In this document: one piece after another, positions 1-31,457 of the stretch
How the letters are laid out: each line of letters opens with the position of its first letter
Position numbering within the stretch: the first letter of the stretch is position 1
Assembly: GCA_008632985.1 (NCBI GenBank)
Contig: QPGO01000152.1
Coordinates: 124,001 to 188,000, forward strand
Direction: 5' to 3'
DNA: 64,000 nucleotides
Source of the DNA: Psammoneis japonica
Lineage: Eukaryota
Made by a program: the position numbers and the translations under genes
Notes under the pieces: model-generated
The model's database searches: none
What the model saw: only the letters and a program-made list of their open reading frames with translations
What the model was told of the DNA's origin: nothing

Positions 1-218
1 GGTGTGGAATTTGACAGAGTGAACGGCAATGCCGGCTTGAATTTTTTGGGCACCAAAACTGCAAAAAAAGCATTTTTGCAACAGGGGCGGCATTTTTCCA
101 TTGCTGAATTCTTCACATTCTTGCCACTCTCTCTCTGCTGTGTAAATGTGTGGAGAGCAAATTCCAATTTGGTGTGAGTCAGGCCCAAACGACCGTTCAA
201 CGTCTCTGGCGGGACACC

Positions 219-1690: not shown

Positions 1691-1954
1691 AAAAGTCTGC
1701 AATCACCAACCACCAAGTGGTCAGTGAAAGTCTGCAATCACCAACCACCAAATGGTCAATGAAAAATCCCACCCCTGTGTCAGTGGAGAGTGTGTTTGGT
1801 GATGTCATGGTGATGCATGCTCACGTCATGGCATTTTTGTGTTTGTGTTCATGTGCATGAGACAACATTTGTGCACAAATGCTCACAGTTGCAGGAAAAA
1901 TCCTGAACCATGTGTGCTCTCCCCCAATCTTGAGCTGCCTCGAAGGGACCCCAC

Positions 1955-3306
1955 CAATGGAGACCTGGACATTTAAAAAACGGGAGACAGTGCGCACGCA
2001 CACAGAAATCACAAAATTCTGATTAAAAAAAACAACCATCACCATGACCGTCCATCTCATCCCAGTGGTCTGCATTGATGTTGTTGCTGCACAACACATC
2101 AGAACCCCATGTGTCCGCCATGGGCACAAAAGGCTGCTGATCACTGGTGTGTCACCTTCTCAAGAAGGATGGAACACATCGTTTGATTGCTTGTGCACCG
2201 TTTTGCGGCACAAAGTGATGGTGCATGACAGAGAGATGTGTTTGCTTGTTGACGCCAATTGGCTTGTCTCAGAAATGTGTCAATCTCATCAGTGGATGCA
2301 TGCTGTTGGGAGATGGTGTTCAGTCAGTGCAGCTGATGGATTTGTAGACGGCACAACACTTGGCATGACTGCAGGCATGCATGACAGTGACGGTGCCGGT
2401 CAGTGCAACAAAGCTCCCATCACGTTTTGCACAAGTTGTCCTTGTCATCAATCAAAACGGCACAGGTGCACACGTGAAGAATTTTCAAAATCTGTGGTTG
2501 GCATTGTGGTGCCTCCGCCCGCATGGAGAACAAGGACAAAAAGGGGCTTGTTGACTTGAAACTGCACCACATGGAAGTTGTGTTGTTGATCCAGCCAAAT
2601 GCACTGGCGGCGGTTGGAGCTGCTGGGCCCCAGCAGTGGTGGCAGTGGGAGCCTGTGTGCTGCCGGCACTGGTGGTGGTGGGAGCCTGTGCCAGTGCAGT
2701 GATGCCACTGGCGCTGGAGGTGGTTGGAGCCTTCTGCCACTGGTGCTGGTGGCAACAGGTGCCTGTGCACTGCTGCTGCAGCACTGGTGGCGGTGGGAGC
2801 CTGTGCAGCTGCTGGCACGGGCAGCGGTTGGAGCCCGTGTGCTGACAGCAAAATCAAGGTGGTTGGATCCCATTTGACAGGTGCCTGTGCACTGCTGCTG
2901 CAGCACTGGTGGCAGTGGGAGCCTGTGCAGCTGAAAATCATCTGTGCCAGACCCACCTGAGTTCTTGTTGTCTAGGAAACTGCGCCATTGAGCAAGCGCA
3001 AGCTGGCAACAAGGTCAACTCGACCGCCGACGTGAACGAGCATGTGACACATGGCTTGCCTTTTGGTTCCAGGCTAATTTCATGCACAATCCTTCAATGC
3101 AAACATGTAATGTCAACAACTGCTTCTTTGTGCTGACAATGAAGGAGTTGTTTCACACTGTCTTGTTGTCTCTTACAACCTTTTCTACTGCCTTTCTTGC
3201 AACCGCTTGATGTTGGTGTCGGATCTTTTGATGTTTTGGCATCTTTTTTGGTTTTTTGTGCAGTGCCACACTGTCCCCTGTTTTTTAAATGTCCAGGTCT
3301 CCATTG
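1955..3306. mobile_element. Degenerate TIR element (~40-bp inverted termini) with internal GGTGGCAGTGGGAGCCTGTGC-type tandem repeats
   Basis: CAATGGAGACCTGGACATTTAAAAAAC at 1955 is the reverse complement of the sequence ending at 3306; repeat array at ~2600-2935; no clean TSD. Confidence 0.55.
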
Positions 3307-3329
3307 AGCACTTTTGGTGCTCTCAAGCG

Positions 3330-5915
3330 CCGCAAAAAAAGCACGCGGCACAACAGCCTCACCATGATGCTTTCAAAACATTCATCCCCTCCCACTTCCG
3401 ACGGAAAAGCGACCAATGGCACTGATGATGCTAACACAACTGCAACCGGCAATGTTGCTGAAGTGGCCGTTGCACCCTCATTGCTTCTGAAATCATGCCT
3501 CATTTGCTGACACTCTGTTTTTTTCAGCTCCACAGCCTGCCGCAGCTTCTGGCATGAATGGCAACGCCGCTGATGCCTTTCCCGTAACTGCCATGCCCAA
3601 AACTTTTCCCAACCCAACTGGTGCAAGAGGTGACAATGTCGCTTTGTCTCTCCTTTGCCAAACACTGATGGAATTATTTTGCACCAACTGGCGCCATTTT
3701 CTGTTGCTGCGCAGCACTTTCAACAGCTTCATCTTGCTCTTTTTCAAGGGATGTGTTTTGGTTAAAGTGCCGTTTGTGCTGACAAACAGCTTCAAGGGAA
3801 TGTTTCAATGTGGTCTTGACTTGAACACTCTCAACATGCCACATGCATCCAGTGTTTCATGGCACTTCTTGGTCATGTTTGGCTTGTGTGCATTCTTTTG
3901 CTTGGTTGTTGGAGATCTGTCCCAAGAAATGCAAGAGTCCGTCAAGATTCAGCAGGGACTCAGAACGTTGACAAATGCCCCGGGTGGCCGCAACAGTTCG
4001 ACACTGAATCAGTCTTGAAGTCAGAAGCTGACAACTTGGAGCTCTTGCGGGGGCACAAATCCAACTTGGACACTGTGGAAAAGTGTCTTCTGGACAAGCA
4101 TCACCCAAAGAAGAAGCTTGCCACTGGTGTGGGTCAGCATGATTTCTTTGGGCAGATGTCCTCCAAGCAAGGTGGAAAGAAAAAGTCCTGATTGAAAATA
4201 ATGTGGTGTTGAGTGGCAGGTGTGGTCATGTGTGTTGCACTCATTTCCAAGGAACCATTCAAACATGAACCAAAAATCTATTCTGTGGTGGTCCATCTGG
4301 GTTTGTTCAAACCAGCACTCTGTCTCTCTCTCCAGGTTGTGGACATTTACAATGGCTGTGATGGAATCAAAATTGTCTCCCTCCATCTCCATCTCACTGC
4401 ACCTTGCCAATTGTGAACAGCAAAAGGCAACAAACACCAGCACTGCAGCCAACAGATGCAAGTGACTGGCCATCGGACATGTTCCTTTGTGACAGAACAT
4501 GCCACCAATTTTGCTCAGTTCCAGTGGCATCATGGGAGACGCCCAGTTGCGGGTCGGGGATTGGGCAGCAGGAACTGAATCAGGAGACAAGAAGTGCAAG
4601 TCTTCCGGATCACAAGTCTGCTGCAATTGTGGTGCAATGGGCAGAATGCTGATGTGGGCCACAACATTGGGTGTGGCAAAGTTGCCAAGGGAAGGCCGAT
4701 GCATCAATGGCACTTGCAACAGAAGCAGTGGCGTGCACTGTGGAGCATGAGTGAAAATGGTGTGAGACAGTGCAACAGCACCATTGGTGTTTTTGGCACA
4801 TGACAGCAATGCAAGAGTTGTCACCTGATGGACCGGGCAAAGTGGGAACCGCAACGGGGGTGCAATCAGCCAGAACATGGCTGACAGCATTGGCATTTGT
4901 GGTGGAAGCTGTGGGAGGCGTGCTGCGCAGCAACAGAAAAATGCTGTCAGTTGGCACCAAATGATTCAGCCAGTGTTTGGCCAAGGAGAGACAAAGCGAC
5001 ATCATTGCCTCTTGTGCCAGTTGGATTCAGAAATGTTTTGGGCAGTGTTGACTGATTGCTGGAATTGATTGCAATCAGCCTGTGATTGATTGCAATCGCG
5101 GTTGCAAACTCGATTGCAATGACCTGATTGTTGGGAAAGAGCCAAGGTCACAATCACAATTGACTGTTGCAATCATTTGCAATCAAAATTTGAGCTCTTT
5201 TTGTGGCTAAAATCAGCAAAATGGCTCGATTTCCCCTGCACGGGGGGCGCGCCTGGCCGGTGGGGCCATTGCAATCACGATTGCAATCGTCACACAGTCA
5301 GACCGCGCAATCGCTGCGCAATTGCAATTGACCAATTGCTGCTCCGCAGCGATGCAATCGCCTGGTTGCAATCTGATTGCTGCAGAAAACTTTGCAATTA
5401 GTCAACACTGGTTTCGGGCATGGCAGCTGACGCGTTCCAGCCCTGGGTGGGAGCTCGAAGCACTGACGTGTGACACAAATAATTTTTGTCATCTGTTGCA
5501 TGGTTTGCAAGCACATTTCTACGTGCAACATTTTAAAAAAATTGTCCAGACTCGCTGTTTTGCAAAGCCCCAAACGGTTCATGTGACAAATTTATAGAAA
5601 CAACAATGTGCCAGCTGCATTCTTCAATGTCTGAAGAATGCAACTGGCCAAGTAAAAAATGATTCACTTCAATCATGGGCGAGTTTGTGCGTTCGCAAAA
5701 TTGCCTCATTTTCTGTTGGCGATCATTGACAACTCAGCAAACAAGGTGTAATTTTGGAAGCAACAGGGGTGCGACGGCCACGTCAACAACATCACCTGTT
5801 GCAGTGGGGTCATTGTCATCAGTGCCGTCAGTCGCCTTTCTGTCGGAAGCGAGAGTGGACGAACATTTTGAAAGCATGATGGCAAGGTTGTTGTGCCACG
5901 TGCGGTTTTCACGGT
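3330..5915. repeat. Two inverted copies of an unclassified degenerate repeat
   Basis: ~3340-3510 matches the reverse complement of ~5735-5905; ~3595-3720 matches the reverse complement of ~4920-5045. Confidence 0.65.
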
Positions 5916-6152
5916 GGTGAGATGGCTGTGGGATTTTGATCAAATCAAGCTTGGTGAAGCGATCTGCCCTGCGGGTGCTGTGGCACAGTGCAAACCTGCA
6001 GCAGCATGGTGCCAACATGCACACAATGAACAAAATTGTGCAAAATTGTGGACATTTTCAAAAAGAAATGCTCCTTGTAAAATGTTCAAGAAATTGCATT
6101 TTAACAAACATCAAAAAATGAAAAACCAGCGCAAGCCGGACGCAACACTCTG

Positions 6153-6327
6153 TGCAAGATCTGGCTTGAGATGACTTGACAAAAGTTGTGAGAAACTGAG
6201 GAGAGACCCAATCATCGCTGATGTGGGAACAAACCTGATGGTTCTCAGCATGTCTGACACGTTGGTTAACACACATGTGTCAGAGAGGGCACACTTGGTC
6301 ATAGAGCACATGTGCCCATCTCATTCA
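6153..6327 (-). repeat. Gypsy 3' LTR
   Basis: Direct repeat of 11596-11770; TG...CA ends; adjacent PPT. Confidence 0.93.
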
Positions 6328-6636
6328 CTCTTCCCCTCCATGGTGCAAGGAACACGCGCACCATTGGAACCACTTGACTAAAATTCAAACCACACGCACA
6401 CAGAAAAGGGAACCCAGACGTTGGGAAGAAACCCTCAACTCTGATGCGGCACCACACAATGAACATTAATTTGTTCAACAACGTGCAGTGCTTGCAGCGC
6501 CAAAACAGTCCCATTGGCATGGACTTTTGTGCAATTCAAAATGGACCACAAGCTCATTTTTCCAACTTTGAAGGATCCACCGACTTGATTTGTGCATCTT
6601 GACTGGCTGGACAAGATTCTCATTGATCAATGCCTG

Positions 6637-7420
6637 TCAGTTGGCTTGAATTGTTGCAAGGTCAGTGACAACAGGCAGGTCCAAAATCACATCACATTGA
6701 AACACTAGAGCTCCACCGGAAACACCCACAGATCTTGAGTGGGAGCATCGTAAAGCACAAGAGGCTGAAGCAAGGGCATTGTCCACAATCTGCTTGGCCT
6801 GTTGAACATTCAAAGGTGGGTTAGCAACAACCACAGTGCGCAAGACATTGGCCACACCATCTGGTGCATTCATTCACAAATGGAGTTGGCTGTGGGATTT
6901 TGAGACGTTGTCGGCGCATCAGCAACACCTGCTTGATTTAGCAGCATTTGAAATTCCCAACCAATGAATTCTCCACCATTGTCATGGACACATTGATTTG
7001 GTCTGGGATGACAAGCTAACCAAAGGTTGTGAAACTTGTCAGTCACATGCTGACAAGTTTTGTTGTCAATGCACACGAGTTCAGTCAATCCAGTGACAGC
7101 ATCAATGCAAGTGAGAGCACTGAATTCAATCTCTTGGTCTTGAATTGGTGTTTTCCACGGTCCAATGAGATCAACTGCTGCTTCTGTCCACAGAGCCAAT
7201 GGTGCTTGACGTTGAGGCAACTCTCCATGTCCAGGACCCAATTGTTCAAATCGTTGACACGCATCACAAACAAATTCATCACAACATCAACACAATGCAG
7301 GATGATGCATGTGAGCACAAATGCTTTCATACAATCACACGACTCCACAATGGCCCAATGCAGGATGATGCCATGCAAGGACATCCGGCAACAACGCAGT
7401 GGGAGTGCAAATTTTCCAGG
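6637..7420 (-). pseudogene. Gypsy integrase remnant
   Basis: LAWHHPALGHCG zinc-binding remnant; VDLIGPW, LTCIDAVTGL, HDNGGEFIG and NPTANSICE core motifs; stops and frameshifts. Confidence 0.85.
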
Positions 7421-7849
7421 CTCCAGGCGGATCATTCACATGCAAACGACAACAAATGAGAGGACAATGGTTCACAATCTTGACCACAAACTGCTGCGGA
7501 TTCTGTTGTCTCTGTTGGTTCAGTTGGAGGTCTTCAAACTGGAATTGTTGTGTCCTTGATGTCTTGGTGGGATTTGGCATTTCGTCCAACATTGGACAAT
7601 TCAAAAAGCATTCAAACAATTCAGGCTCATCAAGCAAAGAGGAAACGGCAGCATGAGACTCATCAGAAGGATCAACAGGAGCATGGCAACACTTGAACCT
7701 GCAAGCGCCCAACTCCAAATCTTCTTCTTCCTTGGCCTTGCTCAATTCACTAGAATCCAACTTGTCAAAACGAACAATTTTTCCTTTGCGTTTGCCACTT
7801 GGCCCAAGGCTCTTCCCCTCCAAAGGTGGATCCACGCGGGGCAAACAAG

Positions 7850-9015
7850 AAAAACAATCGGCAAGCACGTTGTCCTTGCCTTTGACATGTTCAAATGCTG
7901 GCGCAAAATCTTCAAGGAACAGCTGCCAACAAAGGACGCACTGTGCATTCAAAGGTGTGAAAGGTGAGATTTTTATGGTCAGTGTGAACAGTGATGTCAG
8001 CACCGAGCAACATTGTGTGAAATTCTTTGAAGCACATGACGATGGCTGGGAGTTCTTTTTCCATTGTTGAGCAGTTACGTTGGGCCGCCGAAAGCTTCTT
8101 AGACCAATGCGCCACAGCTTTGCCATTTTGAACAATGGCTGCACCCATCTGGCAGTCTGATGCGTTGGTGCAGACATGGAATGGTGGGTTGTGGTTGGGG
8201 CAGGCCATCAATGCTTCTGCTGCAATTGCTGTCTTCATCTCTTTGAATGTTTTCTGACTTGCTTCCATCCAATGGAACTGACTCTTGCCTGTCAACTCAG
8301 TCAGAGGTGCAAGTGAGTGAGAACGGCAAGGCCACATGTTGCAACAGCAAGTTGCTGCACCAAGAAACAATCAAAGCTGAGCAGTGTTTCGTGGAGGTTG
8401 CATTCGCAGGATGGCTTTGACCTTTTTCTTCCACAGTTTAACGCCAGTCAGAGCAAGCCAATGCCCCAAGAAATCGGTTTCTTGAACACACCACTCGCAT
8501 TTCAACGGATTAACTTTCAATCCATTCTCCTTGAGACGATGCAGCACCTTGTCAAGACGAGAGAGATGGCAATCAAAGTCAGTGTCAAATGTGCCAATGT
8601 CATCAATGTGGGTTTCAACATCCAAACCATGTGGAATTTTCTCAATGACAGATTGAGCAATGTCTGGAGCTGGCTTCAATCCCACAGCCATGCGGCAGTG
8701 CTGGAATTTTCTGTGGGGAGTTGCAATCGCAGCTGGCTCCTTGCTTTTGTTGTCCAATTCCAAGTTGTGGTAAAACACAGTGAGATCAAGTTTCTTGAAG
8801 AATTTGCAGCCCGCTCTCCGCTGCAGCACATCTTGGATGGCTGGTGGAGGACACACTTTCTGTTTGAGGACCTTGTTGAGCTCATGGAAGTCGGACACCC
8901 ATCGCACTTGGCCATCCTTCTTTGGAGCAACAAAGGTGCCGGCTGCCCATTCTGCAGGTTTACATGGTTGCAGTGCACCAAGATCCACTGGATGCTTCAA
9001 TTCCTTTTTGAACAC
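7850..9015 (-). pseudogene. Gypsy reverse transcriptase-RNase H remnant
   Basis: VRWVSDFHELNK, FKKLDL, HIDDI (from YxDD), DFLGHWL; RNase H VCTNASDCQMGA, VAHWSKKL, EKEL, HTDHKNL, KGKDNVLAD. Confidence 0.92.
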
Positions 9016-9027
9016 TTCTTCATTAAC

Positions 9028-9885
9028 TCAAGCAACAGGAAACGGTTTTGAGTGACACAGAATGGCATTTTCATCCACTTCAAGGTGCACCTTTTCATGA
9101 GGATGGTGGCCCAACATTCTGTCAAATAAGGTTGAATGTTTTTCCAATGCCGCCAGCAGCTTCTTCTTTTGCTCTTCCATCAGATGGTCTAAATTCCGAA
9201 CCACTTCCACAGGATCCGTTGCTTTGCATTTGGCGTCTGGCATGCAGGTGTCACATCCATCGTCACATCTGTAGTTTGACTTGTCCTCACAGTCTTCATC
9301 AAACTCATCCATTTGGTCTAGAGCCATGTGCCAATTGCAGGACTTGGACCAATGACGGGGTTCTTTCATTGGGATCACACTGTCCAGCCATTGTAGCATC
9401 CTTGTGTCGTAACTCAAATTGAGGCCAGTCTTGTCCAAGAAATCTTGACCCAAAATGACATCACACGCACACGGAGCATTGAACACGTGAGCCATGCAGC
9501 CATCAATCCTTCGAGTCTTGTCAAACTCTGGCAACACAACATTGCTCAAGGCCACCCAACGACCCGACTGGAAAGGACCTGCAATGGTTTGAAAGGCTTG
9601 GACTCCGCATTCGTCAACAGACGGCACGGCTCCACGAGGTAGAACTTGGGACAAAATCATTGTGTGAGATCCACCAGAATCTAACAAAACACGCATCACA
9701 TGATTTGACTCATGCCGTTGGATCGATTTTGCAACAAGCAATGCAGATGGGACCAATGCGGTGCGCGAGACTTGCAAGTTCATTTTGGGGAGAGGAATGT
9801 TGTGTTCAAATGCATCTCGATCAAACACATCCCCCTCTTCATTCATGTAATTTTCTGCAGCATTTTCAAATTCAACAGGTGACAA
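9028..9885 (-). pseudogene. Gypsy aspartic protease region
   Basis: VLLDSGGSHTMI active-site motif and DVILGQDFL. Confidence 0.85.
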
Positions 9886-10132
9886 TTCATCAGGATTTTC
9901 AAAACGATCAAAAACAAAACATTCATCATTTCATTCAGGCAAAACACAATCATTCTCATCAACAAATGCTTCTCTTGTGGGCAATTGGGAGCATTCAGCT
10001 CCAGAGCATTCAGCTCCTTTCTTCTCAGAACTGCCAAGGAAACTGCCCATCTGGCTGAAACCTCACCACACCGTAATGTGGAAGGCCTCATCTGATCATG
10101 TCAAAATGGTGCACATCACCACGAGGAGCTTC

Positions 10133-11282
10133 TCAAGCCTGGTTGCCATTCACATTGTCTGCTTGAGCAGCACAGCCGTTGGCCTGACCTTGGCCTCCAC
10201 GGTTGTTGTTTTCATTGTGACAATGTTGACCACCACCTTGGTTGCCATTGTTGTTTTGATGCCCATTGTTGTTGTTGTCATTGTGACAGGTGCCACGACC
10301 TCCTTGGTTCTGGTTGCCACGACCACCAAAGCGTCCACTGCCTCCACGGCCTTGACCACGGCCTCCTTGGAAGCAACCTCCGCCTCGACCTCCACCGCCA
10401 CGGCCTCCTCCTTGACCGCCATGGTTCTGAGGCCCATGACAGTTAGGGTTGTTTGGATTGTCATGACACTGGCCCCATGTGTGCCATCCATGGTGCCACA
10501 GGACCGGACACAGATCACTTGCCTTTGGTTGGCTTTTGCTGTCCTTCTTGTTGCGGTTGCCCTTTTTGTTGCTGGAGTTCCCCACAATGCCGTTGTTGGA
10601 CTTGCGTCATTTGTCATCTTGACCGTTGGAAAAACACCTTCTTGTCACTCATGCAGGCTTGAACATCCACCATTGAATCTGCAACAAGGTTCTTGCCCAC
10701 ACGAATGTAAGACTGCTGCCAGGTCAAAGGGAAGGTGTAAAAAATGACATTTTTCTGCTCCTGCTCTGTAAGTTCAGGAACAGTTCCAGGCAAATGGTTG
10801 GCATGACAAAACAATGTTTCCATGTGATCAATGTGAGTTTCAGATTCTGCTGAGCAAGGCTTCTTGCAAGCAGGCAAATGCATCTTCATCGCATCGCAAG
10901 CTGTCAGTTTCATGCAGCACAGACAGTGGGCCAAGACAGCCTGATTAAATTGGGCTGCCGTTTGCTGATTCTGTTGGATGTTCGCGGCAACATTCTGCCA
11001 TTTTGCCTCTGCAGCACCTTGGAGACAATCCTCCAAAGCATCAAACAACTCTGTTCCGGCATCACAGTCCAGCCGTCTTGCTGCCTTCTGGAACCTGTCC
11101 TCCATGTGCAACAATGATTCAATTCCATGCTCTCCTGTAAAAACAGGACACATTTTTGAAAGTTTAGCACCATCATCAAAAGTTTGAGTGAGTTTCACTT
11201 CTTGTAATTCAGAATCCACGAATTTGGTCTTATGCTCAATGCACGCTTTCTCCAAGGCTTCTTGATGCATGGCAATGAACAA
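10133..11282 (-). pseudogene. Gypsy gag remnant
   Basis: Lies between the 5' LTR and the protease; CPVL..HGWHTWGQC knuckle-like motif followed by an RGG/Asn-rich tract. Confidence 0.7.
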
Positions 11283-11595
11283 TTTCAGCGATCAAACAAT
11301 CAACAATCCACAAGATGAACGAAACAAGGCATTCCCAATTGATCCACACAATGAGAACAATCAATGACTAAACAACAACAAATTCAACAGTGGCAACACA
11401 AACTTCGAGTTCAAACAAACGCTGCTCCAAATTGCCAATTTCAAGAGCACAATTGCACTGCAACTCCAATCGACTTTGAATGAAATTTTCTGCACAAGCA
11501 CACAGACAAATTTTCTCTCTTCTCAACAACACTCTTCACATTGTCATAAAACTGATGATGCAATGAACAAGCCACAACAATGACTGCAATTACAG

Positions 11596-11770
11596 TGCAA
11601 GATCTAGCTTGAGATGACTTGACAAAAGTTGTGGGAAACTGAGGAGAGACCCAATCATCGCTGATGCGGGAACCAACCCAACGGTTCTCAGCATGTCTAA
11701 CATGTCAGTTAACACACACACATCAGAGAGGGCACACTTGGTCATAGAGCACATGTGCCTGTCTCATTCA
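11596..11770 (-). repeat. Gypsy 5' LTR
   Basis: Direct repeat of 6153-6327. Confidence 0.93.
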
Positions 11771-12054
11771 CTCTGAAACAAGCCATCGGAGCTCAAGTTG
11801 ATGTTGGCCAGTTGCACAGAATGCATGCTGGACATGCACCAAGGAAAACCCAGACATGTGGCCAACTTTGGCCAAAGCTGGACACAACAAGGTTGCTGCA
11901 GATCTGTGCAGAGAGCCAGGGGTGCTGTCTGTGGGATGCAGGAGATTGCTTGTGCCTGCATGTGCATTTGCTTGTGCGCGAATGTTCCCTTCTCAATGCA
12001 TGTGATGACATCATCACACATCACACACAACCACATCCCACAGTGCCACTGACA

Positions 12055-13966
12055 CCACTTCCAGTGTGTTCCTGTGGCCTCTGCGGAGACTTTGAATCAT
12101 TGCACGCCAAATTTTGTGGGGCAGAGCTTTTTCAACGCATGGATCCAAATCTGCACCATGCACCGTGTTACAGCACAGCACTGCATCTTTTCAAAAATCA
12201 ACATCTGTCGGTGTTGTCAATGCCACCCATGCGTTGCAAGGCATGTCGCAATGGTGCATGTCCACTTTTTCTTGCTCCTCTTGTCATTGTCAATGTTGGC
12301 TTGATCTGCCATTCTCTTCTTTGATGCATGCTTTTTTGTCGCTTTTTCAGATTTTGCCATGAAATCCGTTCTGAACGCTGCTTTTGCACTCCCCTTTGCT
12401 CTTTGGTCTGTAGTTCACTTTCTGCATTTTCGGCACTCGGCTTTGGCTCGGGCATGGGCAACCTTTTTCACGAGATTCTTCCATGTGTGCTTCAGTGATG
12501 CAATGGTCAATCGTTTGCTGCTGTTCTCTTGGGCTGTTTTCAAGAAGGAGCGTTGCAAAACCTTGTCTCCCATTGCCTTCCCCATGCAGAAGTGAAGAAA
12601 ATCATTGCCACGACATTCAAAAGCTTTTGCGTCACAGTGTCCCCGCACCTGATGCAACAGTGTCTTTGCAACTGTAAAACAAGGTTTGGAAACCAAGGCA
12701 AGCCAACCCATGTTTTGACTTTGTTCTCCTTGTGAACAATGGTCACTCATGTGATCATTGTCCAATGTTGCTTTGTTGTGAGTGGCATTTTGATTTTGGA
12801 CTGGAGACGGCCGCCATCATTGACTCCTCAAACAACAAAAGAAGATCCCCCATCATGTGTTGACATGACACATTGAAGGTGAGCCCATCTGCATGGTTCA
12901 TTGTCCAAACAGCCTTGAACCAGTTTTCATTCACAGTGTGTACACTGACCCTTGCGATCTTCTGAAAATCATCATCGTTCTTCAACAGTCCATCATGTCT
13001 GGCTCATTAAAATGGGCTCAGTGGGGATTTCGGCAGCATTGCTTGGCATTCCTCTCAAGACTCAGTGGCACTGCCGTGTCTTTCCCTTGGCAGCAATTGC
13101 CGGTGAGAACATTTCTGTTTGTTCTGTGTTCATGTGTTCAATTTTGTTGCCTCTCTTGAAGCCTGTGTCGAAAACAATGTTCTCACTGCTTGCATCCCCC
13201 CTTCTCTTTTTGGCCTCCCACTGCAACTGCCGGCAGCTGCTTGCGGGGACGACATCTGCTGAATGACCTGGCGTGACAGTTCACAGGTCGTGGTTTGATG
13301 TGTGGCTTGGCATGATCAAGGCGAGAAAAAACAACGAATGCGTCCGATTGTGAAAGATGGAACAAGGAGAGCTGGCTGTCATGCACCCACAGGGTTCTGT
13401 CACAGTGTGCTCTAAATGTCCCATCAAAAGATTCACCCCACAGCATCAGACAGCATTGGGAGTCGCTCATGCTGACAATGGCAATGTTGGGATCTCAAAC
13501 GGATCTGGATCGGGCATCAGCATGATGTGATGCATGATGGTGCGACGGAAAAACCGCACCGCAACAAACCACCTGCACACAACTCTGGTCTCCTTGCGTG
13601 ATTTTCACAAGGCGGGTCATGTTGCGCTTGTTGGATGCCAAGTGTGCAGAATGTGTCACATTGCACTTGTCACCCAAGTTGCAAATGCAAGCCTTCTTTG
13701 CCTTCCTTTTTGTGTCGGTTGCAGCCTTGGTGTCAGGTGCCATTGCACTGAAAATTCACAAATGAAACAAAGTGGCTCTGATGGCAATTGCATCCATTTT
13801 GTTGTTTTGTTGTTCCGTTGACAGCAACATTGATGCTGATTGTCAAGTGCCATTGTGGTGCAGTGTTCAGAAAAAAATCAAAAATTTTGAAAAGCTCCGC
13901 CCCGCAAAATTCAGCATGCAAAAACTCGAAGTCCCCGCAGCCAATGCACAATCATGCTGGAAATGG
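12055..13966. mobile_element. Degenerate DNA transposon with ~110-bp imperfect TIRs
   Basis: CCACTTCCAG...CTGCGGAGACTTTGAATCATTGCACGCCAAATTTTGTGGGGCAGAGCTTTT from 12055 is inverted at ~13860-13966; decayed internal minus-strand ORF fragments; no clean TSD. Confidence 0.6.
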
Positions 13967-14791
13967 GAGGCCCGCTGGCAACTGATCTGACGCTGATTGA
14001 ACAAGGACAAATTGTTGAAGCCTGCGGTGGAGCCTGTGCAGCCCCACCTGTCCTGTTGTTTAATTGTGTGTCCATGATGCAAGCCATCGCAAATGCAGAC
14101 TGCGACCCGCATCTGGATTCAGTGCTGGGGTGGGGGTTCAAGAATGGTCACATGAAGAAAGACCAAGGGACAACACAAACACAAACACAATCTCACTTTC
14201 TTTCAATCAAATGCACACCACAGCACTGTCTCAGTTTTGTGGGCACGTCACATCCTCCAGTGCATGCCCAGTGTGGTGTGTGGGGTGACGCAAAAATGGC
14301 AACAGCAGCATGGTGTTTGAAGCAGACACCAAAGAAGGCATCTCCAAATGCTTCAAAAGCACATGTGGGCAACCCAGGGCTTGAGTGTCCATTGGTCTCA
14401 CACAGGAGTCAAAAGGAAATTTCTTGCAATCACTGTGTGCTGGCCCTGCTGATGGAAATTGAAGGCAAATGGCAAGAATTCAAACAACAACTCCTCACTG
14501 CTGTCTAAACAGCAGATGAGTCTCCGCTCAGAGACCGTTGCAGGAGCCAAAAGACGTGCAAGTCGGTGTGATCGGGCTGCTGTTGTCATTCTTGTGAGCC
14601 TTGTGGCTCGAAAGCAAACTACATCGCGCGCGAACGCGCGGAACTAAAGCACACAAAATTGTGCGCGGTAAACTAAACAGCGCGCGACATTTCGCACGCA
14701 CCCAAATCCTGTTCAAATCCTGTCACTCCCCAGTTTGCTTGAGGAGTCACAGAAACAGATTCGACTTCGGATTGACTAAAGAACTTTGGAG

Positions 14792-16465
14792 TCAAAGCAC
14801 CAAAACATGAGGAGACAAGAAAGGATCAAGATCCAAGAGCAATGTTGCATTCTCCAAGTGGGTCATCTTGAGATGAGCTGCGTCTCCCCAATTGCAGATG
14901 CCGTTGTGCTTTTCAAAGCTCAAGGCACACTTGGGATCTTGTGGGATTCCACATCTGCACTTGCAATGGAAGGAGCAAAGCTTGGTCTGGTTGACAATGT
15001 TGAACGGCGGGGCAACATTGCAGGCGGCATGGCGTTTGCACGACTCGGGGAACAGAGCAAGCATGAGTTCAAAGGCACAAGCGGTGGTCTTGTGTTCCAC
15101 CAATCTGATTGCAAGCTCAGCTGCATCTCCTGAGAGACTGATCCAATTGGAGAAACGAGTCTCAAGGTGCAAGCCTTCGGGGATCGGATTGGAGCAAGAC
15201 ATCTTGCAGTGCAAGGCTGCAGATGTCTGATTGGGGCAACCAGTCCCGTGCTGCAAGACTTCTGGGATCCAAAAGGACTTGCCAGTCTTGTGACACGAGT
15301 CTTCGGGGATCCAATCAGGAGGCCAAGTCTCGTGGCACAAGACTTGAGAGATCCAATCCGGAGGCCGAGTCTTGAGGTATGAGATGTGGAGGATCCAATT
15401 GGGAGGCCCGGTCTTGAGGCACGAGACGTGGAGAGTCCAGTTGGGAGGCCTGGTCTCAGGGCACGAGACTTGGGGCATCCGATCAGGAGGCCCAGTCTCG
15501 ATGTACGACACTTGGGGCATCCAATCAGGAGGCCCAGTCTCGAGGCACGAGACTTGAGGCATCCAATCAGGAGGCCCAGTCTCGAGGTGCGAGACTTGGG
15601 ACATCCAATCAGGAGACCTGGTCTCGAGGTACGAGACTTGGGGTCCCCAATCAGGAGACCTGGTCTCGAGGTACGAGACTTGGGGCATCCAATCAGGAGG
15701 CCCAGTCTCGAGGTACGAGACTTGGGGGATCCAACCAGGAGGCCCAGTCTCGAGGTACGAGACTTGAGGCATCCAATCAGGAGGCCCAGTCTCGAGGTAC
15801 GAGACTTGAGGCATCCAATCAGGAGACCTGGTCTCGAGGTGCGAGACTTGGGGCATCCAATCAGGGGGCCTGGTCTCGAGGTACGAGACTTGGGGCATCC
15901 AATCAGGAGGCCCAGTCTCGAGGTGCGAGACTTGAGGCATCCAATCAGGAGGCCTGGTCTCGAGGTACGAGCCTGTGCAAGGGCTGCAATCCTGCACTGG
16001 GCCGAGGTTGCTTGCAGGCGGGTTGGTCAAGACATGTGGGGCGCGACTGACACCACTTCTAGGGGACACCTGAGTGGCGGCACAGTGCAAGGCTGGTGTC
16101 AAAATGGCACTGGGTTCATCTGGTTTGGATGGCAAGGGACTCGGCACAGGTGCGGAGGGTGCTGCGCCAGTGGCTAGAGAGGTCAAGCAGTCCGGACCAA
16201 GGCGGCAGTTGCGAAATTCCTCGGGTGTGAGCAACTGGGGTTCATTGGTCACATCATCACCGTTGCAAACTTTGACAAAGCAGAAGCTGATCAAAGCTGC
16301 TAGGAGGTTTCTGTGGGTCCATGGCAAAGGCACTACATTGGCGCCGTCTCTGTAAGTGAGGGTGTCAATTTGGGTGGGTAAGAACGTGAACAATTCCTCG
16401 CACAATTCAATCCCGTTGATGGACAGGGCAGAACGAAGAGGGCTGTCATTGTCTTGATTGAGCAC
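14792..16465 (-). CDS. Copia-derived ORF: gag-like N-terminus, ~20 14-aa repeats, pre-RT fragment (expression unknown)
   Basis: 557-codon open frame; DSPLRSALSINGI...IDTLTY resembles diatom Copia gag starts; C-terminal CGIPQDPKCALSFEKHNG..NWGDA resembles the segment preceding Copia RT. Confidence 0.5.
   Translation of the reverse strand: MLNQDNDSPLRSALSINGIELCEELFTFLPTQIDTLTYRDGANVVPLPWTHRNLLAALISFCFVKVCNGDDVTNEPQLLTPEEFRNCRLGPDCLTSLATGAAPSAPVPSPLPSKPDEPSAILTPALHCAATQVSPRSGVSRAPHVLTNPPASNLGPVQDCSPCTGSYLETRPPDWMPQVSHLETGPPDWMPQVSYLETRPPDWMPQVSHLETRSPDWMPQVSYLETGPPDWMPQVSYLETGPPGWIPQVSYLETGPPDWMPQVSYLETRSPDWGPQVSYLETRSPDWMSQVSHLETGPPDWMPQVSCLETGPPDWMPQVSYIETGPPDRMPQVSCPETRPPNWTLHVSCLKTGPPNWILHISYLKTRPPDWISQVLCHETWPPDWIPEDSCHKTGKSFWIPEVLQHGTGCPNQTSAALHCKMSCSNPIPEGLHLETRFSNWISLSGDAAELAIRLVEHKTTACAFELMLALFPESCKRHAACNVAPPFNIVNQTKLCSFHCKCRCGIPQDPKCALSFEKHNGICNWGDAAHLKMTHLENATLLLDLDPFLSPHVLVL
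15130..15971. repeat. 42-bp tandem array (~20 units, ~15 well conserved) encoding SYLETGPPDWMPQV on the minus strand
   Basis: Unit GGCATCCAATCAGGAGGCCCAGTCTCGAGGTACGAGACTTGG repeats with period 42 and decays toward 15130. Confidence 0.95.
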
Positions 16466-18577
16466 AGTGCCTAGAATGCATTTGAAGCTGTCGGTTTGTT
16501 GCTGTCATGTGAGAACCATGACGGAGGACGGTGCAGTAGAAACAAAAGACAGGATCCAATCTAGAGCGCGATCTTGACTGGGAGTTTTGACTTGGAACTT
16601 GGCTTGAAAAAGACTTGACTTGAGCCAGACTTGACTTGAAATCTTGGACTGTCCTAAAATCAGAAGTCGCCGGGCTGTGCTGTCCCATTTGTTGTCAAGT
16701 GCTGAGCTTCCTATCCGGTCCGTAGAGTTGTGCCGGCACGTCCGAACCCGCAGCCAGCGGCGCTTTGGGTTGCTTACGAGTGGAGCAGCGGGTTGTAAAC
16801 CCCTGCAGGCAAGCTGACTAGAGGTGGACAAGACCCCCGAACCGTTCTTATTTTACATCGGTTGGATTTCCCGATCAGGCTGGCCAGTTGACGTAGGCGC
16901 AGGTGCTGTGGACGAACGAACAAACGCGGGAAAACACCCTCGCCCCAACGCAGGCTGCAATCACGGCTGCTTGCTCTCACAGTCGTCCTCGTGGACCTGG
17001 CAGAACTGCAGAGCACCAGTGGTCCGGGGCAGATCAGGTACAATGGACTCGGCGTGCTTGCAGAGTGGCAGCAAAGCTGCAGTCCAAAGAGTGGGTTCAA
17101 GTCCTTGGCCGTGAAGATGTGTGTGCACACATGTCTTCAGCGACGGAGATCCTTGAACATGTGGGGTTCTTGACCGTTAACCGTTGAATGGGCAGGGCCT
17201 GTGTCACGGGATGAGGATCAAGGATGGGCTTGGATGTGACCGTTCAATGCATGTCTTCAGCGATCAAAGGTGGCATGATCAATCCAGATGTCCAGCGGTG
17301 AGGAGACTTGACGGTGACGTTAACTTCCTGCCGATGCCCTGGCATTGGATGCGCGCAGACTTGCCGATGTGCGTAGAACATGTGCGGAGGTCCACGCAGA
17401 ATTGAGACAGTGCTGTCGGCAAATCAACGACGACGATGGCGGTTGCTCAATGGGTTGACAATGAGCAAGACTGTTAATCTGACAGAAATTGAAGGCAAAT
17501 GGCAAGAATTCAAACAATGACTCCTTGCTGCTGTCTAAATGGCAGATGAGTCTCCGCTCAGAGACCGTTGCAGGAGCCGAAAGACATGCAAGTCGGTGCA
17601 ATCGGGCTGCTGTCATCATTCTTGTGAGCCTTGTGGCTCGAAAGCAAACTGCATCGCACGCGAACGCGCGGAACCAAAGCACACAAAACTGTGCGCGGTA
17701 AACCAAACAGCGCGCGACATTTCGCGCGCACCTGAATCCTGTTCAAATCCTGTCACCTGCGCTGCCTCTCTTCTTTGAGAGCAGCAGGGTTGTTGCAGAG
17801 CAAGCTGCCTGTGCCAGGAGACAAAAATGCATGAGTGCTGCTGGCACTGCTGACTGAGCTGTGGCTGCATTGTGCACACATGCCAGCATGCTCTGTGCTC
17901 TGCAAAAATGAGACAAGAGCACAAAAGAGCTTGTGACCAGAGCTGGCACTCTGCAAGAGCGGCTTTCAATGATGATGATGCACGGCAAGCTCAAAGAGCT
18001 CCTGCGGGGCACTTTTGTCAACTTTTTGGATTGGAAGACAAGAATGCAGTGCTTGACAAGTTGTTGGTGTGAGAACACAGAAAAATGAGATGCGACAAAA
18101 ACCACCAACAAGTGCCAGCAGGTTCTGAAGTCTGCGGAGGCACCAGGAGGTTTGCCAGCCATTCTTGCCACAGCACCAGTGCTTTTCTAAAACTGAATGT
18201 TTGCGCACATCACAAGAACAAAGCAAGAGACAAGACACTCTTTCACACGTGCATGTAGGAACGAGGGCGGCTGCGAAAGCACGCACAGCGAGGCGCTGAC
18301 AGTGACTGGCTAGCAGGGGGTCAGACGGTCGGTGATGCGATGACGTTTCGTGCCTGAAGACATGGCCTTCAGTCGTCACTCTCGCCAGTTATTTACAGTG
18401 ACAGACGCGGCAGACAGCAAGACGATCGTTTTCCCGCCATGTTATGTATGCGTGTACTCAACCGCATCAACGCGAAGTGATGGTGAGATGTGAAGATGGG
18501 TGAGTGCCGTGAAAACACTCGGCACTCGGCACATCCATCGCAGAGCGCAACTGTGCCAACACTGTAAACGAAACTAA

Positions 18578-26241: not shown

Positions 26242-26871
26242 GGTTGGTTGCGTTTAGGGGGAGGGCCACTTGTTGTTATCCTGCCAGTGCCTAATTATTG
26301 AGGATGGGCGGTAAAGTCACATCAAAGAGGGACATGTCTGCTTCTTTCGTTTTTTCGGAACGTGACCATGGCAACAGATTGAAGTACAAGTAAGGACGAT
26401 GTATCTCCTCACAAGTGGAAGCGCCCTTTGTATTTTCTAGAATCCTATCAATGCACTTCCTTGGAGGTAAGGCGCTGGGTTACAGGGGTAGCTTAACTCC
26501 TCACAGCCAAAGTCGATACGTACAGCTTTTCGCCCTGATGAGCCTCCCTTTTATTCTCAACACTTTCTCCCAGAAATTTACACACGCGGAACTGCATGGG
26601 CTAGAGAGCAGGGTCAAATGACAAGCCACTACTAGCTACAGTAGGTAGAGCTGTGTCCCACACTCCACCGTGTAGCGCCAACGTCCACAAATTACATCGC
26701 GTGAACGTAGAAGTACTGTACCTAGGCAGGAGAATCTCGCTCTGTGCATGAACCCCGAGCTGTGCGAGTAGGTACTCTAGCTACTCGTACCAGTAGTGTG
26801 CAGGACAAGGAGGCTCTCGCTAGCTACCTACGGCACTCAACAGCTACTCTATTCGTCCAACGTCACAATAT

Positions 26872-27326
26872 GATCGTTACGTAGTGAGCGAACCCATTGC
26901 ACACTAGAGAAGCACGTGTCTACCAAGATACCTTAGAGTAATCTAAGTAGGTTTTTCTCATTCACCATGTACACGGATCTCGCTATCTACCCACTCAAAA
27001 GATCGTCACCTGATGAGCGAACCCCTTGCACACTAAAGAAGCACGTGTATACCAAAAGATACCTTGGTTTTTTACACTCAAATCTAAATGGGTTTTTCTC
27101 AATCACTACATGAATGAATCTCGCTATCTACGTACACAAAAGATCGTCACGTAATGAGCGAACCCCTTGCACACTAAAGAAGCACGTGTCTACCAAGATA
27201 CCATTCTTACAGTACGTTCTACAACATGAACAAAAATGAATCTCAAAATCACGTGCCGGTAGTCGAGTCGTCATGGTGTGTGCGAACCCCTTGCACACTA
27301 AAGAAGCACGTGCCTACCAAGATACC
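26872..27326. repeat. Four-copy ~130-140-bp tandem repeat containing CACGTG, upstream of the MFSD5 gene
   Basis: GCGAACCC(A/C)TTGCACACTA(G/A)AGAAGCACGTG core in units starting at ~26872, 27001, 27142 and ~27270. Confidence 0.85.
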
Positions 27327-27624
27327 TATAAGTAATACATTTTAAAAAAGCTGAATACGACGATAATATCGGGCAATAAATAAATCCTGTTTTAGAATAT
27401 GACGGAGACACCATCTACTGCCCCTTCTCATCTTGAGAATGGGCGGCACAGCCAGATAGATAGGTCGTCTCATAAAAAAGTCAGAAACGGAAGATTGAAG
27501 AAGTCTCAAATCTTTTTTTCGCGATGGAAGGTGTCACCTGATAATGCACGAACCTACTCTCCTTCAGCGCAACTTCCCTCCAACAGAGGAGAGAGAAGAA
27601 AGTCCTCTTTCTCCTGCGGGCACC

Positions 27625-30052: not shown

Positions 30053-30396
30053 TGGCAAATGATTTGCGGCACGAGAGACCGTTCTGACTGCACGTTTTAT
30101 TCGGAATTCATTTGAACTGTCGCAGCACTGCTCGTAAAGTCTTTAGAGAGAGTAGTTTAAGTGCTGTTGTAAAAAAACATTAACGAAACAAAGATGACGC
30201 CACTTGATTCAACGTTTGCTTTCAGTATCGGTACCTATCCGTATAGAAATACATGTTTGCAGTACTACAATTCTTAACTGTAGGCGTGCTCATTCTTCCT
30301 TTTTTGCAGTACTGCCGACAATGAGCATTCGGCTACTTTGGTCATTCATTGTCTTGGAGAATACATATTCACCACAATGCTTAATCGCAGGCGTGC

Positions 30397-31256
30397 TCAT
30401 TCTTCCTTTTTTGCAGTACTGTCGACAATGAGCATTCGATTACTTTGTTCATTCATTGTCTTGGCCATTTCATCCAGCCTCGCATTGATTCGCTGTAATG
30501 GGTCCTTGGTTGCATCGTTGAAAACGTCATAGACTACCTGAAGTCCAATAAACTTTCCCACTCGAGTGTTGGCTAGAAAATGCAGCAAGTCCAAGAAGTC
30601 CACATCTCCATCCTTGTCGCTGTCCAGTCCAAGATACCGTCCCAAGGCTTGTGCGAGATGTGAAGTAAGGAAAAAGAAGAGCCATACGCAAAGGACAGAA
30701 ATGATGGGATATATTGCAAAGGCAGCAATGCAACCGGCGATGCATCCTAGAAGAATCAAGATGATGGCAGGCCCAATGTACAGTGTGAGTAATGTCAACA
30801 CCAACATGTAGCCTCGCGGTAAGAATAAGAATCCAGAAAACACCGAGATGCCATACAAGACATTGCATACAACTGAGAGCAAAGCTATTGTTGACTCTTC
30901 GTCAGGAAGCTTGCCAACTGTCAAGTAAATCTACAGTCATGATATTATGAACAGTGTAGAGACCAGACAGCATGTGAGTCGACTTTAGATAGCATAAAAT
31001 CGTTTGATATCAAAAGACTCACATAAAATTTGTATTTTCGAGTGTTGACAGCTTGGTAAATTTCTTTTCCAATCATTTCGACGAGAAAATGAACTCTTGG
31101 CATGTTGCCGCCGCCAGCATCATCATCAGCTTCTTCTTGTGGTGGCTCTTGTTTTTGTCTTCTCGCTTGGACAACCGTTAAGCATAAGCATAGGATAACC
31201 AGAAATTGAAACAATCGAGGATTTAGAAACGAAGTAAGAGAGCGGCGACTGATCAT
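30397..31256 (-). CDS. Uncharacterised membrane protein with signal peptide and EF-hand-like loop
   Basis: Hydrophobic N-terminus (FLVILCLCLTVVQA), several TM helices, DSDKDGDVDFLD; intron boundaries near 30900-31030 unresolved. Confidence 0.6.
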
Positions 31257-31457
31257 GGTGGCAGTAGTTTTTGTCGGTTGTTGATCTTCAAACTTGAAAC
31301 GACGCGGGAAAGATCGGGAACCCGGAAGTAACAGCAAGATGCGAACGCGCGATTTTTGCGCGAAAAGGTAGATTAGCTCATATCCTTTTCGAAATTTGCG
31401 GTGGGTGGAAATTCCAATCTCCAAATCCCCCAAATTACACAGAACATAAAAACAACC

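Follow-up and report, generated by a model that had tools for sequence, protein, structure and literature searches.

Changes after insertion of a young LTR element in a diatom match TpA-specific hypermutation alongside slower CpG decay

The window, a 64-kb stretch of diatom nuclear DNA, contained an LTR element of only 3,306 bp. Two direct repeats of 276 bp with TG..CA ends (left LTR, 14450-14725; right LTR, 17480-17755) are 92% identical without gaps and enclose an interior of 2,754 bp (14726-17479). Directly outside them the same 5-mer was found at 14445-14449 and at 17756-17760, a target-site duplication of 5 bp where 4-6 bp is expected; such a duplication and long terminal direct repeats with TG..CA ends are the structural features of an LTR retrotransposon. 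Read on the minus strand, the LTR at 14450-14725 adjoins purine-rich sequence that ends in GGGGAG and resembles a polypurine tract; should the element have this orientation, this would probably be its 3' LTR. We found no TGG-type primer-binding site beside either LTR, and the 64-kb window held no tRNA gene for comparison. The interior (TA observed/expected ratio, o/e, 0.23; CG o/e 0.62) contains, at 15159-15998, an array in which a 42-bp unit is repeated in tandem about 20 times; TRF by itself gave 15295-15971, period 42 and 16.1 copies.

The first-pass annotation had named the element Copia. Over all six frames, 33 ORFs of 45 aa or longer overlapped the interior, and a Pfam scan gave none of them a credible match at E<=0.1; at E<=0.001 nothing fell in the element interior, and the hits overall were at chance level. 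The longest interior ORF (14795-16504, minus strand) had no homologue in the search, Gypsy polyproteins did not match the element by tblastn, and gag, pol and integrase went undetected in the interior. With neither reverse transcriptase nor integrase nor any other domain to be detected, the Copia label is unsupported. The Ty1/Copia domains (a pol with, in this order, protease, integrase, reverse transcriptase and RNase H; Pfam RVT_2, rve and gag) were among those undetected, and the superfamily is unassignable. No further copies of the LTR family occurred within the 64-kb window. The element is probably a young LTR retrotransposon, non-autonomous or unclassifiable, inside an older transposon-derived block of the diatom nuclear genome, a judgement made jointly with the two-process reading of its Y-R mutations given below.

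The block that hosts the element (1-18190) is depleted in TpA and enriched in TG/CA, with TA o/e 0.04 and CG o/e 0.21-0.43 in the flanks, and it ends about 400 bp short of the first gene ORF (18578). A second, older depleted block was located at 35205-45004, where TA and CG make up 1.2% and 3.9% of Y-R sites and repeat pairs show 9-11% transversions; this block had been described as having lost both dinucleotides, and the counts per 500 bp between 35 and 45 kb bear this out (TA o/e 0.00-0.14, CG o/e 0.03-0.42). A small depleted islet between genes (50970-52250) contains a 98-bp tandem repeat. TA o/e was 0.03-0.19 inside the three blocks versus 0.5-0.8 in adjacent genes, and the transition took place within a few hundred bp, which shows the sharp borders of the TA process. 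TA accounted for 2.0% and TG+CA for 90% of Y-R sites in the blocks, compared with 16.8% and 60% in genic DNA, and the block values are opposite to the signature of fungal RIP (TpA excess, CpA/TpG deficit).

In the ungapped alignment of the 276 LTR positions there were 22 differences, all of them transitions, with no transversions and no gap columns, and for 21 of them the dinucleotide concerned is Y-R in the left as well as the right LTR; the earlier hand count was thus reproduced exactly. Its swap classes agree with the Y-R table as well: seven CA/TG, two TA/CA, one TA/TG and four CG/CA, beside 18 CG/CG and two TA/TA sites. As first described, the LTRs are rich in CG (20 in each; o/e 1.16 left, 1.10 right) and poor in TA (five left and two right; o/e 0.30 and 0.13), and isolated CGs are mostly unchanged in both copies. 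Since the two LTRs were copied from one template and were identical at insertion, the Y-R differences arose after integration, and the pair shows in this way the post-integration timing of the TA process. Background change in the pair is one in 276 bp. When 22 transitions were placed at random on the LTR in 100,000 trials, TG<->CA doublets had a mean of 0.29 and a maximum of 4, and at least seven were reached in 0 of 100,000. The seven doublets are best read as sites with a presumed ancestral TA that mutated independently in both LTRs.

A joint Poisson fit to the LTR pair, with TA and CG sites together, gave about 17.5 ancestral TA sites with a loss probability of 0.80 per LTR (95% profile 0.62-0.91), and about 22 CG sites with a loss probability of 0.10 (0.04-0.23), so that the TA/CG rate ratio is about 15. 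The homogeneous fit predicted 0.7 TA/TA sites and 5.6 single hits where two and three were observed, and rates therefore vary among sites. The swaps might instead come from CpG decay alone, as methylated CpGs deaminated on opposite strands in an LTR family that was TA-poor from the start. With 18 CG/CG sites against four CG/CA, however, the CG loss probability of 0.10 predicts only 0.11 swaps by this route (the probability of at least seven is 4e-11), a CG-only origin is 8.3 log-likelihood units worse, and the three TA/TG-or-CA differences are not CpG events.

A degenerate Ty3/Gypsy element at 6152-11774 (minus strand; 180-bp LTRs at 6152-6331 and 11595-11774), with reverse transcriptase, RNase H and integrase in that order on the minus strand, served as a test of polarity. 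At the 23 codons where 60% or more of the homologues have Tyr, the window copy has Tyr at one, Cys at 10, His at 10 and Phe at two, Cys and His together taking 20 of the 23. Because Tyr went to Cys and to His in 10 columns each, the change from TA to TG or CA is directional and affects both strands; the columns show both properties of the TA process. Further changes were Leu to Pro (CCA) in six columns and Val to Ala (GCA) in four. Consensus Arg (n=37) was replaced by Cys at nine, Gln at eight, stop at five and His at three, indicating that CG to TG and CG to CA are genuine in the window, as an origin by CpG decay alone would have it. Tyr to Cys/His at 20 of 23 columns, however, is impossible from CpG, and we consider that explanation very improbable. 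Within this one element, where age is equal, TA was kept at 1/21 Tyr codons and CG at 9/34 Arg-CGN-type codons (Fisher p = 0.07). The control gene eIF3d kept Tyr at 11/13 and Arg at 31/32 positions.

The same columns bear on RNA-level editing, by which ADAR-like A-to-I changes on transposon transcripts would be fixed by reverse transcription and the depletion would be inherited, not acquired in place. APOBEC (C to U, on cDNA) and ADAR (A to I, on dsRNA) of animals resemble the present case in that they mutate selfish elements, deaminating bases with a preference for certain neighbours, but they act on RNA or replication intermediates before or during integration and are strand-asymmetric, whereas here resident DNA is changed on both strands equally. 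ADARs are known from animals only, which also counts against this explanation. The equality of T-to-C (His, 10) and A-to-G (Cys, 10) changes on the Gypsy coding strand, with the LTR-LTR divergence, means that editing of sense RNA before integration is not the sole cause, and the 21 Y-R differences between LTRs copied from one template postdate integration. In its favour, the discussion of the available Bigelowiella natans preprint text notes that ADAR-type enzymes favour a 5' U (bioRxiv 10.64898/2026.01.13.699255). Some depletion may also predate insertion: if ancestrally TA, 0/7 swap sites would have been in RTAY context, the class lost fastest elsewhere, and this hints that the source copy was already without its most susceptible TAs before inserting; it also counts against reading these seven sites as ancestral TA. 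As the explanation for the whole pattern, RNA editing seems to us extremely unlikely.

Survival of TA depended on the flanking bases. With genic DNA standing in for the ancestral composition of the transposon blocks, TA survival was 0.5% at RTAY, 11.5% at mixed flanks and 36% at YTAR (normalised 0.005, 0.115 and 0.363), and CG survival was opposite in trend (46% at RTAY-type, 33% at mixed and 24% at YTAR-type flanks). Among surviving TAs, RTAY made up 2/124 in the old blocks versus 428/1356 in genic DNA. Judged by these survival values, the TA process favours RTAY flanks and the CG process does not, which shows the flank preference of the former. The 42-bp array carries traces of both processes. 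One unit column has TA, TG and CA variants and never CG, and because CG is absent there TA is the hub of the column; another column has CA, TG and CG variants with CG as the hub, as CpG decay alone would also produce. Nine RTAY-type TAs persist in the array, in about half of the units, and they fit poorly with a uniform and continuing attack across the whole element.

Retention of TpA and CpG against transversion divergence, the plot proposed in the first-pass annotation, could be followed in 10 repeat pairs. The CG share of Y-R sites declines with transversion divergence (Spearman rho -0.71, p = 0.02), and the TA share, already at its floor, exceeds 0.07 in no pair, not even at 0-0.6% transversions. 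Five lines of evidence from the 64-kb window (the LTR fit, the Gypsy Tyr codons, Tyr versus Arg, the repeat pairs and the flank rules) thus support the view, put forward at the outset, that TpA is lost faster than CpG decays and that the two can be separated. If the mutation rate is 4.77e-10 (PMC6604790, in its available part), the loss of 0.80 per TA site against one background change per 276 bp gives, as a rough clock, about 4e-7 per TA site per generation, to be read as an order of magnitude only. A mutation-accumulation study of P. tricornutum reports no such TpA signature in its available text, where 'TpA' and 'transposable' have zero occurrences.

Passive regional mutation bias or selection would need no dedicated system; for example, flexible TpA steps in compact chromatin might suffer damage that is poorly repaired. 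TpA is indeed mildly under-represented everywhere (genic TA o/e 0.6), and DNA mechanics could underlie the RTAY preference. A loss of about 80% per TA site against one background change in 276 bp, block borders only a few hundred bp wide beside genes, and loss that goes on in dead elements, where coding or RNA selection is gone, all argue against it, and we regard it as very unlikely, if slightly less so than CpG decay alone.

The interior, particularly about 15.6-17.1 kb, had been thought to retain more TA than the LTRs, suggesting spread from the flanks or dependence on copy number. The counts do not sustain this: 33 TA in 2,754 bp of interior (1.20/100 bp) compare with seven in 552 bp of LTR (1.27/100 bp), and the 26 in 1,501 bp at 15600-17100 (1.73/100 bp) are not a significant excess (for interior and 15600-17100 against the LTRs, conditional binomial p = 0.83 and 0.56; Fisher on Y-R sites p = 1.0 and 0.33). 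Because the interior excess is not there, both ideas lose their premise. A repeat-induced, homology-dependent trigger as in fungal RIP, in place of targeting by chromatin domain, would point the same way as the copy-number idea, and all classifiable depleted sequence is transposon-like or duplicated. RIP is also alike in being transition-only, dinucleotide-specific and very fast, in degrading transposons while sparing adjacent genes, and in leaving sharp-edged compositional blocks. It requires a RID/DNMT4-type enzyme and a sexual cycle. The mutation type is the reverse, however: RIP changes C:G to T:A mainly at CpA and makes TpA, whereas TpA is destroyed here. Comparison of interior and LTR TA revealed no duplication dependence, the LTRs being no more depleted than the single-copy interior, and in gene-rich DNA the tandem duplications at 26.9-27.3 kb and 30.26-30.46 kb, both short, keep their TAs and have no swaps. 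In B. natans, the NCLDV region that is hypermutated occurs as a single copy according to the available preprint text (bioRxiv 10.64898/2026.01.13.699255). Such a trigger appears unlikely to us.

Considering these results, we propose that two separate processes have altered the DNA of the element since its integration, with nearly all changes at Y-R dinucleotides. The first would be a fast, domain-restricted change of TpA to TpG or CpA (A:T to G:C), acting on either strand equally with a strong preference for R-T-A-Y; per site it would run about 15 times as fast as CpG decay and exceed background by two to three orders of magnitude. The second would be the ordinary, slower decay of CpG to TpG/CpA, as in methylated transposons; CpG methylation of diatom transposons is documented in the available parts of two reports (PMC2806351, PMC9998398). 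5-Methylcytosine decay resembles this slower process in its CG to TG/CA changes, in Arg to Cys, Gln, His or stop, and in a CG share declining with age, but it leaves the TA loss, the change of Tyr to Cys/His and the different flank dependence unexplained. TG and CA would be the common sink of both processes, and for this reason old blocks come to have almost no TA or CG left, while their TG+CA reaches about 1.8 times the expected level. Taken as one claim with the identification of the element above, this reading of TpA hypermutation plus slower CpG decay, in a young LTR element within an older block, is in our judgement probable.

We infer that an enzyme targeting silenced or foreign DNA lies behind the TpA process and that the process acts in bursts. 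DNA adenine deamination, as proposed for Bigelowiella natans, and thymine modification are the most likely candidates; no deaminase gene was found within the 64-kb window. A DNA-level process at TpA might do without adenine deamination altogether and begin at thymine, if this were oxidised to 5-hydroxymethyl- or 5-formyl-uracil that mispaired with G, or if repair of T:G/A:C mismatches were biased. As TpA is self-complementary, T-to-C and A-to-G changes are indistinguishable from sequence, and the palindromic RTAY preference suits any enzyme, or any effect of DNA structure, for which the two strands are equivalent. No thymine-modifying gene was seen in the 64-kb window, and nothing in it counts against such a lesion, which we hold to be rather unlikely.

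In the literature searched, A:T to G:C hypermutation aimed at TpA was described once, in 2026, for integrated viruses of an unrelated rhizarian alga. In mutation-accumulation lines of B. natans, the available preprint text reports hypermutation of integrated viral DNA solely from TpA to TpG/CpA at about 6e-7 per site per generation, an enrichment of RT and DDE domains in TpA-depleted, CpA+TpG-enriched sequences, and an ADAT2-like DNA adenine deaminase as the proposed, not demonstrated, cause (Mettrop et al., bioRxiv 10.64898/2026.01.13.699255). So far as that text goes, both systems have TpG and CpA as the sole product pair on both strands, are restricted to certain non-host regions (here the eIF3d control is untouched), and show clustered long-term TpA depletion with CpA/TpG enrichment and an activity that is apparently not constant; the rate is about 1000 times background there, and the value of about 4e-7 here is an indirect estimate. 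On the same footing, the systems differ in host (a rhizarian there, a diatom, hence a stramenopile, here), in targets (giant-virus and virophage insertions there, LTR retrotransposons and their debris here) and in depth of depletion, which is far greater here (Rho 0.45 for the NCLDV region there, TA o/e 0.03-0.15 here). RTAY is strongly preferred over YTAR here, whereas the available text reports no flank preference beyond TpA; CpG decay coexists here and is not discussed in that text. New mutations were observed there, whereas the process here is known from its sequence footprint.

The post-insertion changes of this young diatom LTR element, almost only at TpA and more slowly at CpG, match TpA-specific hypermutation of selfish DNA, so the TpA process is probably not peculiar to a single species, and in diatoms, which are major primary producers of the sea, it may affect the composition of heterochromatin. 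Beyond the B. natans report, the present case shows how TpA loss is timed against CpG decay (TpA goes first, at about 15 times the rate), gives a flank rule (RTAY) and provides evidence for action on both strands of resident retrotransposon DNA. We might speculate, though with more doubt than belief, on an old dedicated defence common to diatoms and chlorarachniophytes, which would recognise silenced or foreign DNA and, without depending on cytosine methylation, edit A (or T) at double-stranded R-T-A-Y in bursts shortly after integration. In that case A:T base editing would parallel fungal RIP and be widespread among eukaryotes, with a 4-bp target rule readable directly from genomes. For LTR dating, counting Y-R sites would overstate the age of the element about 20-fold. 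Because TAA and TAG codons have been lost, long spurious ORFs fill the blocks, which is a hazard for annotation.

The window is diatom nuclear DNA, in which gene-rich stretches are interleaved with three compositionally odd blocks, poor in TA and rich in TG and CA. The ORF of eIF3 subunit D (31377-33125) is uninterrupted and its best matches show 72-74% identity; identity is 68% with Seminavis robusta and 55-65% with other pennate and centric diatoms. Long, intron-poor ORFs in the gene-rich stretches encode a kinase, an MFS transporter, eIF3d, an NTE-type patatin lipase and others, and the observed/expected ratio (o/e) there is 0.5-0.8 for TA and about 1 for CG. The depleted DNA comprises block 1 (1 to ~18190), block 2 (~35205-45004) and an intergenic islet of ~1.3 kb (~50970-52250), with TA o/e in the range 0.03-0.19 and TG+CA enriched ~1.8-fold. 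The composition switches from block to gene within a few hundred bases beside the adjoining ORFs. Windowed composition confirmed the first-pass annotation in that the 35-45 kb block has lost TA as well as CG. The islet is TpA- and CpG-poor, contains a 98-bp tandem repeat at 51880-52141, and is possibly a solo LTR or transposon fragment.

Blocks 1-18190 and 35205-45004 are filled with many long overlapping ORFs in several frames without family match; these are spurious, since the TAA and TAG stop codons have been lost, and such blocks are a trap for gene prediction. A Pfam scan of the ORFs of 70-119 aa across 35.2-45.1 kb gave no credible match. Two collinear repeat pieces in block 2 (40038-40678 and 43766-44221), ~3.6 kb apart, with 72-73% identity and 9-11% transversions, are probably the LTRs of a far older element. 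Within the TpA-depleted block 1, an EMC3/TMCO1-like fragment (3491-4015, plus strand; Pfam E = 4.7e-11) belongs to an inverted duplication (3335-3730 / 4905-5909), the arms of which differ mainly by transitions with 9 and 4 TG<->CA doublets (TG in one copy, CA in the other). This piece may be a fragment of a host gene, captured or pseudogenised, that was mutated alike.

Block 1 also contains a 3306 bp LTR retrotransposon (14450-17755). Its LTR ends are exact (14450-14725 and 17480-17755; 276 bp each, with TG..CA termini), and an identical 5-bp target-site duplication lies immediately outside both LTRs. The flanks are far more TA-depleted (TA o/e 0.04) than the element (0.13-0.30), therefore the element is a later arrival. 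It had been labelled Copia, for which we found no basis: the interior is overlapped in six frames by 33 ORFs of 45 aa or more, none with a credible Pfam match, and the scan of ORFs of at least 120 aa in the whole window did not reveal its superfamily either. Residues 1-190 of the minus-strand ORF 14795-16504, the longest of the element, found no homologue at E<=0.001 among the proteins of 313-998 aa searched, and tblastn with 81 Gypsy polyproteins gave matches confined to 6.3-11.2 kb and none in this element. The window contained no tRNA genes for comparison with a primer-binding site, and self-BLAST of the window returned just the two LTRs and no further copies. It is described as a non-autonomous or unclassifiable LTR element carrying a 42-bp tandem array. 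Its long ORFs were rejected as genes, such ORFs being expected because TA loss deletes two of the three stop codons.

The two LTRs align without gaps over 276 bp and differ by 22 transitions and no transversions, 21 of them at dinucleotides with the pyrimidine-purine (Y-R) pattern in each copy, as had been counted by hand. The tally of Y-R sites is CA/TG 7, TA/CA 2, TA/TG 1, CG/CA 4, CG/CG 18 and TA/TA 2, in exact agreement with the hand count. The LTRs contain five and two TAs and carry 20 CGs each. When 22 transitions were placed at random, seven doublets appeared in none of 100,000 trials (mean 0.29, maximum 4), therefore the seven adjacent double changes are not due to chance. A TG<->CA doublet arises when an ancestral TA (or CG) is altered in both LTRs, once per strand. 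For the CG sites, 18 intact pairs and four single changes correspond to a per-LTR loss of 0.10, which predicts 0.11 doublets (P(>=7) = 4e-11). A route to the swaps through CG only was set aside, its fit being 8.3 log-likelihood units poorer. Isolated CGs, besides those in CGCG runs, are mostly unchanged in both LTRs, so a fast-decaying CpG subclass is not apparent. Through a joint likelihood fit of the LTR pair by grid search, we obtained ~17.5 ancestral TA sites with a loss of 0.80 per LTR (0.62-0.91) and ~22 CG sites with a loss of 0.10 (0.04-0.23), a TA:CG loss rate ratio of ~15.

The homogeneous model predicted 0.7 intact TA pairs, and two were observed; such an underprediction is expected if sites differ in susceptibility. 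None of the seven swap sites would be RTAY (TA with a purine before and a pyrimidine after it), which suggests that the source copy was already without the TAs of highest susceptibility, and the TA poverty of the element may be inherited in part. The residual TAs of both LTRs stand exclusively in CTAA, GTAA or CTAC. The interior had been thought richer in TA than the LTRs, and this did not hold: 33 TAs in 2754 bp (1.20/100 bp) compare with 7 in 552 bp (1.27/100 bp), and the supposed excess at 15.6-17.1 kb (1.73/100 bp) is not significant (p = 0.56; p = 0.33 over Y-R sites).

LTR differences alone leave TA loss and TA gain undecided, and proteins were therefore taken as outgroup for a second element in block 1, a degenerate minus-strand Ty3/Gypsy element (6152-11774) in which RT is followed by RNase H and then integrase. 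Its 180-bp LTRs are 16 transitions and one transversion apart and include five TG<->CA doublets, and its pol region contains stop codons on read-through. The homologue query was a single RT ORF of this element; among the best 120 polyprotein relatives listed, the 81 of at least 900 aa served for a tblastn alignment to the window and the 39 shorter ones were excluded. A column counted as conserved where 10 or more homologues were aligned and 60% or more of them agreed, giving 578 codons. At the 23 Tyr columns, the copy has Tyr once, Cys 10 times, His 10 times and Phe twice, and TAY->TGY and TAY->CAY are equally frequent. Six Leu->Pro (CCA) changes, four Val->Ala (GCA), one Ile->Thr (ACA) and one Ile->Met (ATG) are consistent with the same rule. 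The Tyr in the RT active-site motif region reads His. Arg was kept in 10 of 37 consensus Arg columns (9 CGN, 1 AGA) and otherwise replaced by Cys (9), Gln (8), TGA stop (5), His (3) or Lys (2), which is the signature of CpG decay. All five stops at conserved Arg positions are TGA, as expected from CGA. In the eIF3d control by the same procedure (112 of 120 listed homologues, at least 500 aa; 367 conserved columns), Tyr was retained at 11 of 13 and Arg at 31 of 32 columns.

That TpA is lost before CpG and by a distinct process, as proposed in the first-pass annotation, is supported within the window by three independent lines: the LTR pair, the Gypsy element and ten pairs of repeats in the depleted blocks. 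In the Gypsy element, with equal time for both, one TA remains among 21 Tyr codons and nine CGs among 34 Arg-type codons (p = 0.07). Across the ten pairs, CG as a share of Y-R sites declines from 0.28 to 0 with increasing transversion divergence (0 to 0.11; rho -0.71, p = 0.02; a small sample of families that may differ in starting CG content). TA does not exceed 0.07 of Y-R sites in any of the ten; its genic share is 0.17. Each process has its own flank dependence. TA survival relative to genic DNA, normalised for each flank pair, is 0.5% for R-TA-Y, 11.5% for mixed flanks and 36% for Y-TA-R, and CG survival in the same classes is 46%, 33% and 24%. Only 2 of 124 TAs remaining in the old blocks are RTAY, compared with 428 of 1356 in genic DNA.

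Nine RTAY-type TAs (eight GTAC and one GTAT) persist in the 42-bp array (15159-15998), spread over about half the units; the element outside the array has one RTAY in 31 TAs, and the type is almost extinct elsewhere in depleted DNA. The position of this TA falls, in each unit, in the loop of a 6-bp inverted repeat, and several units are identical. It is possible that TA-bearing units were re-amplified after an early mutation burst, and local protection is also possible. One column of the units reads TA, TG or CA and never CG, and another reads CA or TG and once CG; both routes into TG/CA therefore exist.

Resident DNA was changed after its integration, equally on the two strands and only within the transposon blocks. 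The changes are specific to TpA with a preference for RTAY, and much faster than CpG decay. We infer a targeted enzymatic process. Adenine deamination to inosine and a G-pairing thymine lesion are inseparable by sequence because TpA is self-complementary. We might speculate that the palindromic four-base preference reflects a reader that acts symmetrically on duplex DNA, or the ease with which the TpA step opens in alternating purine-pyrimidine runs. We considered RNA-level editing, RIP and GC-biased conversion as explanations and set them aside; fungal RIP is a functional analogue, but it makes TpA and the process here destroys it. Two tandem duplications in gene-rich DNA (26860-27336 with 141-bp units; 30264-30473 with 107-bp units) still have their TAs and are free of TG<->CA doublets, therefore short duplication alone is insufficient to attract the process.

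A similar process was described in Bigelowiella natans. According to the available text of a 2026 preprint (10.64898/2026.01.13.699255), two integrated viral regions mutated in some mutation-accumulation lines only, at ~6e-7 per site per generation, almost only by A->G/T->C changes and all at TpA; the genome contains clusters poor in TpA and rich in CpA+TpG, RT and DDE domains are enriched in the TpA-depleted predicted coding sequences, and an ADAT2-like DNA adenine deaminase was proposed. The same text does not mention diatoms or CpG. Here, the one LTR difference in 22 outside Y-R context, with the Phaeodactylum mutation rate of 4.77e-10 (accessible part of PMC6604790), gives ~4e-7 per TA site per generation, a very rough clock that is of the same order. 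The window supports this diatom as a second host, beside B. natans, of TpA-directed hypermutation of selfish DNA, and the flank rule, the kinetics and the retrotransposon targets are new relative to that system. No diatom report of TpA-targeted mutation was found in the literature covered, which lay outside subscription journals, and term searches did not find it in the accessible text of papers on retrotransposons (PMC2806351), DNA methyltransferases (PMC9998398) and mutation rate (PMC6604790).

Among the 120 listed Gypsy homologues of other organisms, a set biased to intact ORFs, one had Cys or His at 30% or more of the Tyr columns. P0134, a Gypsy relative from another organism on an ENA contig, reads Cys/His at 5 of 10 aligned Tyr columns and retains Arg in 8 of its 11 Arg columns, none of which reads Cys, His, Gln or Trp; it may carry the same TpA-first signature elsewhere.
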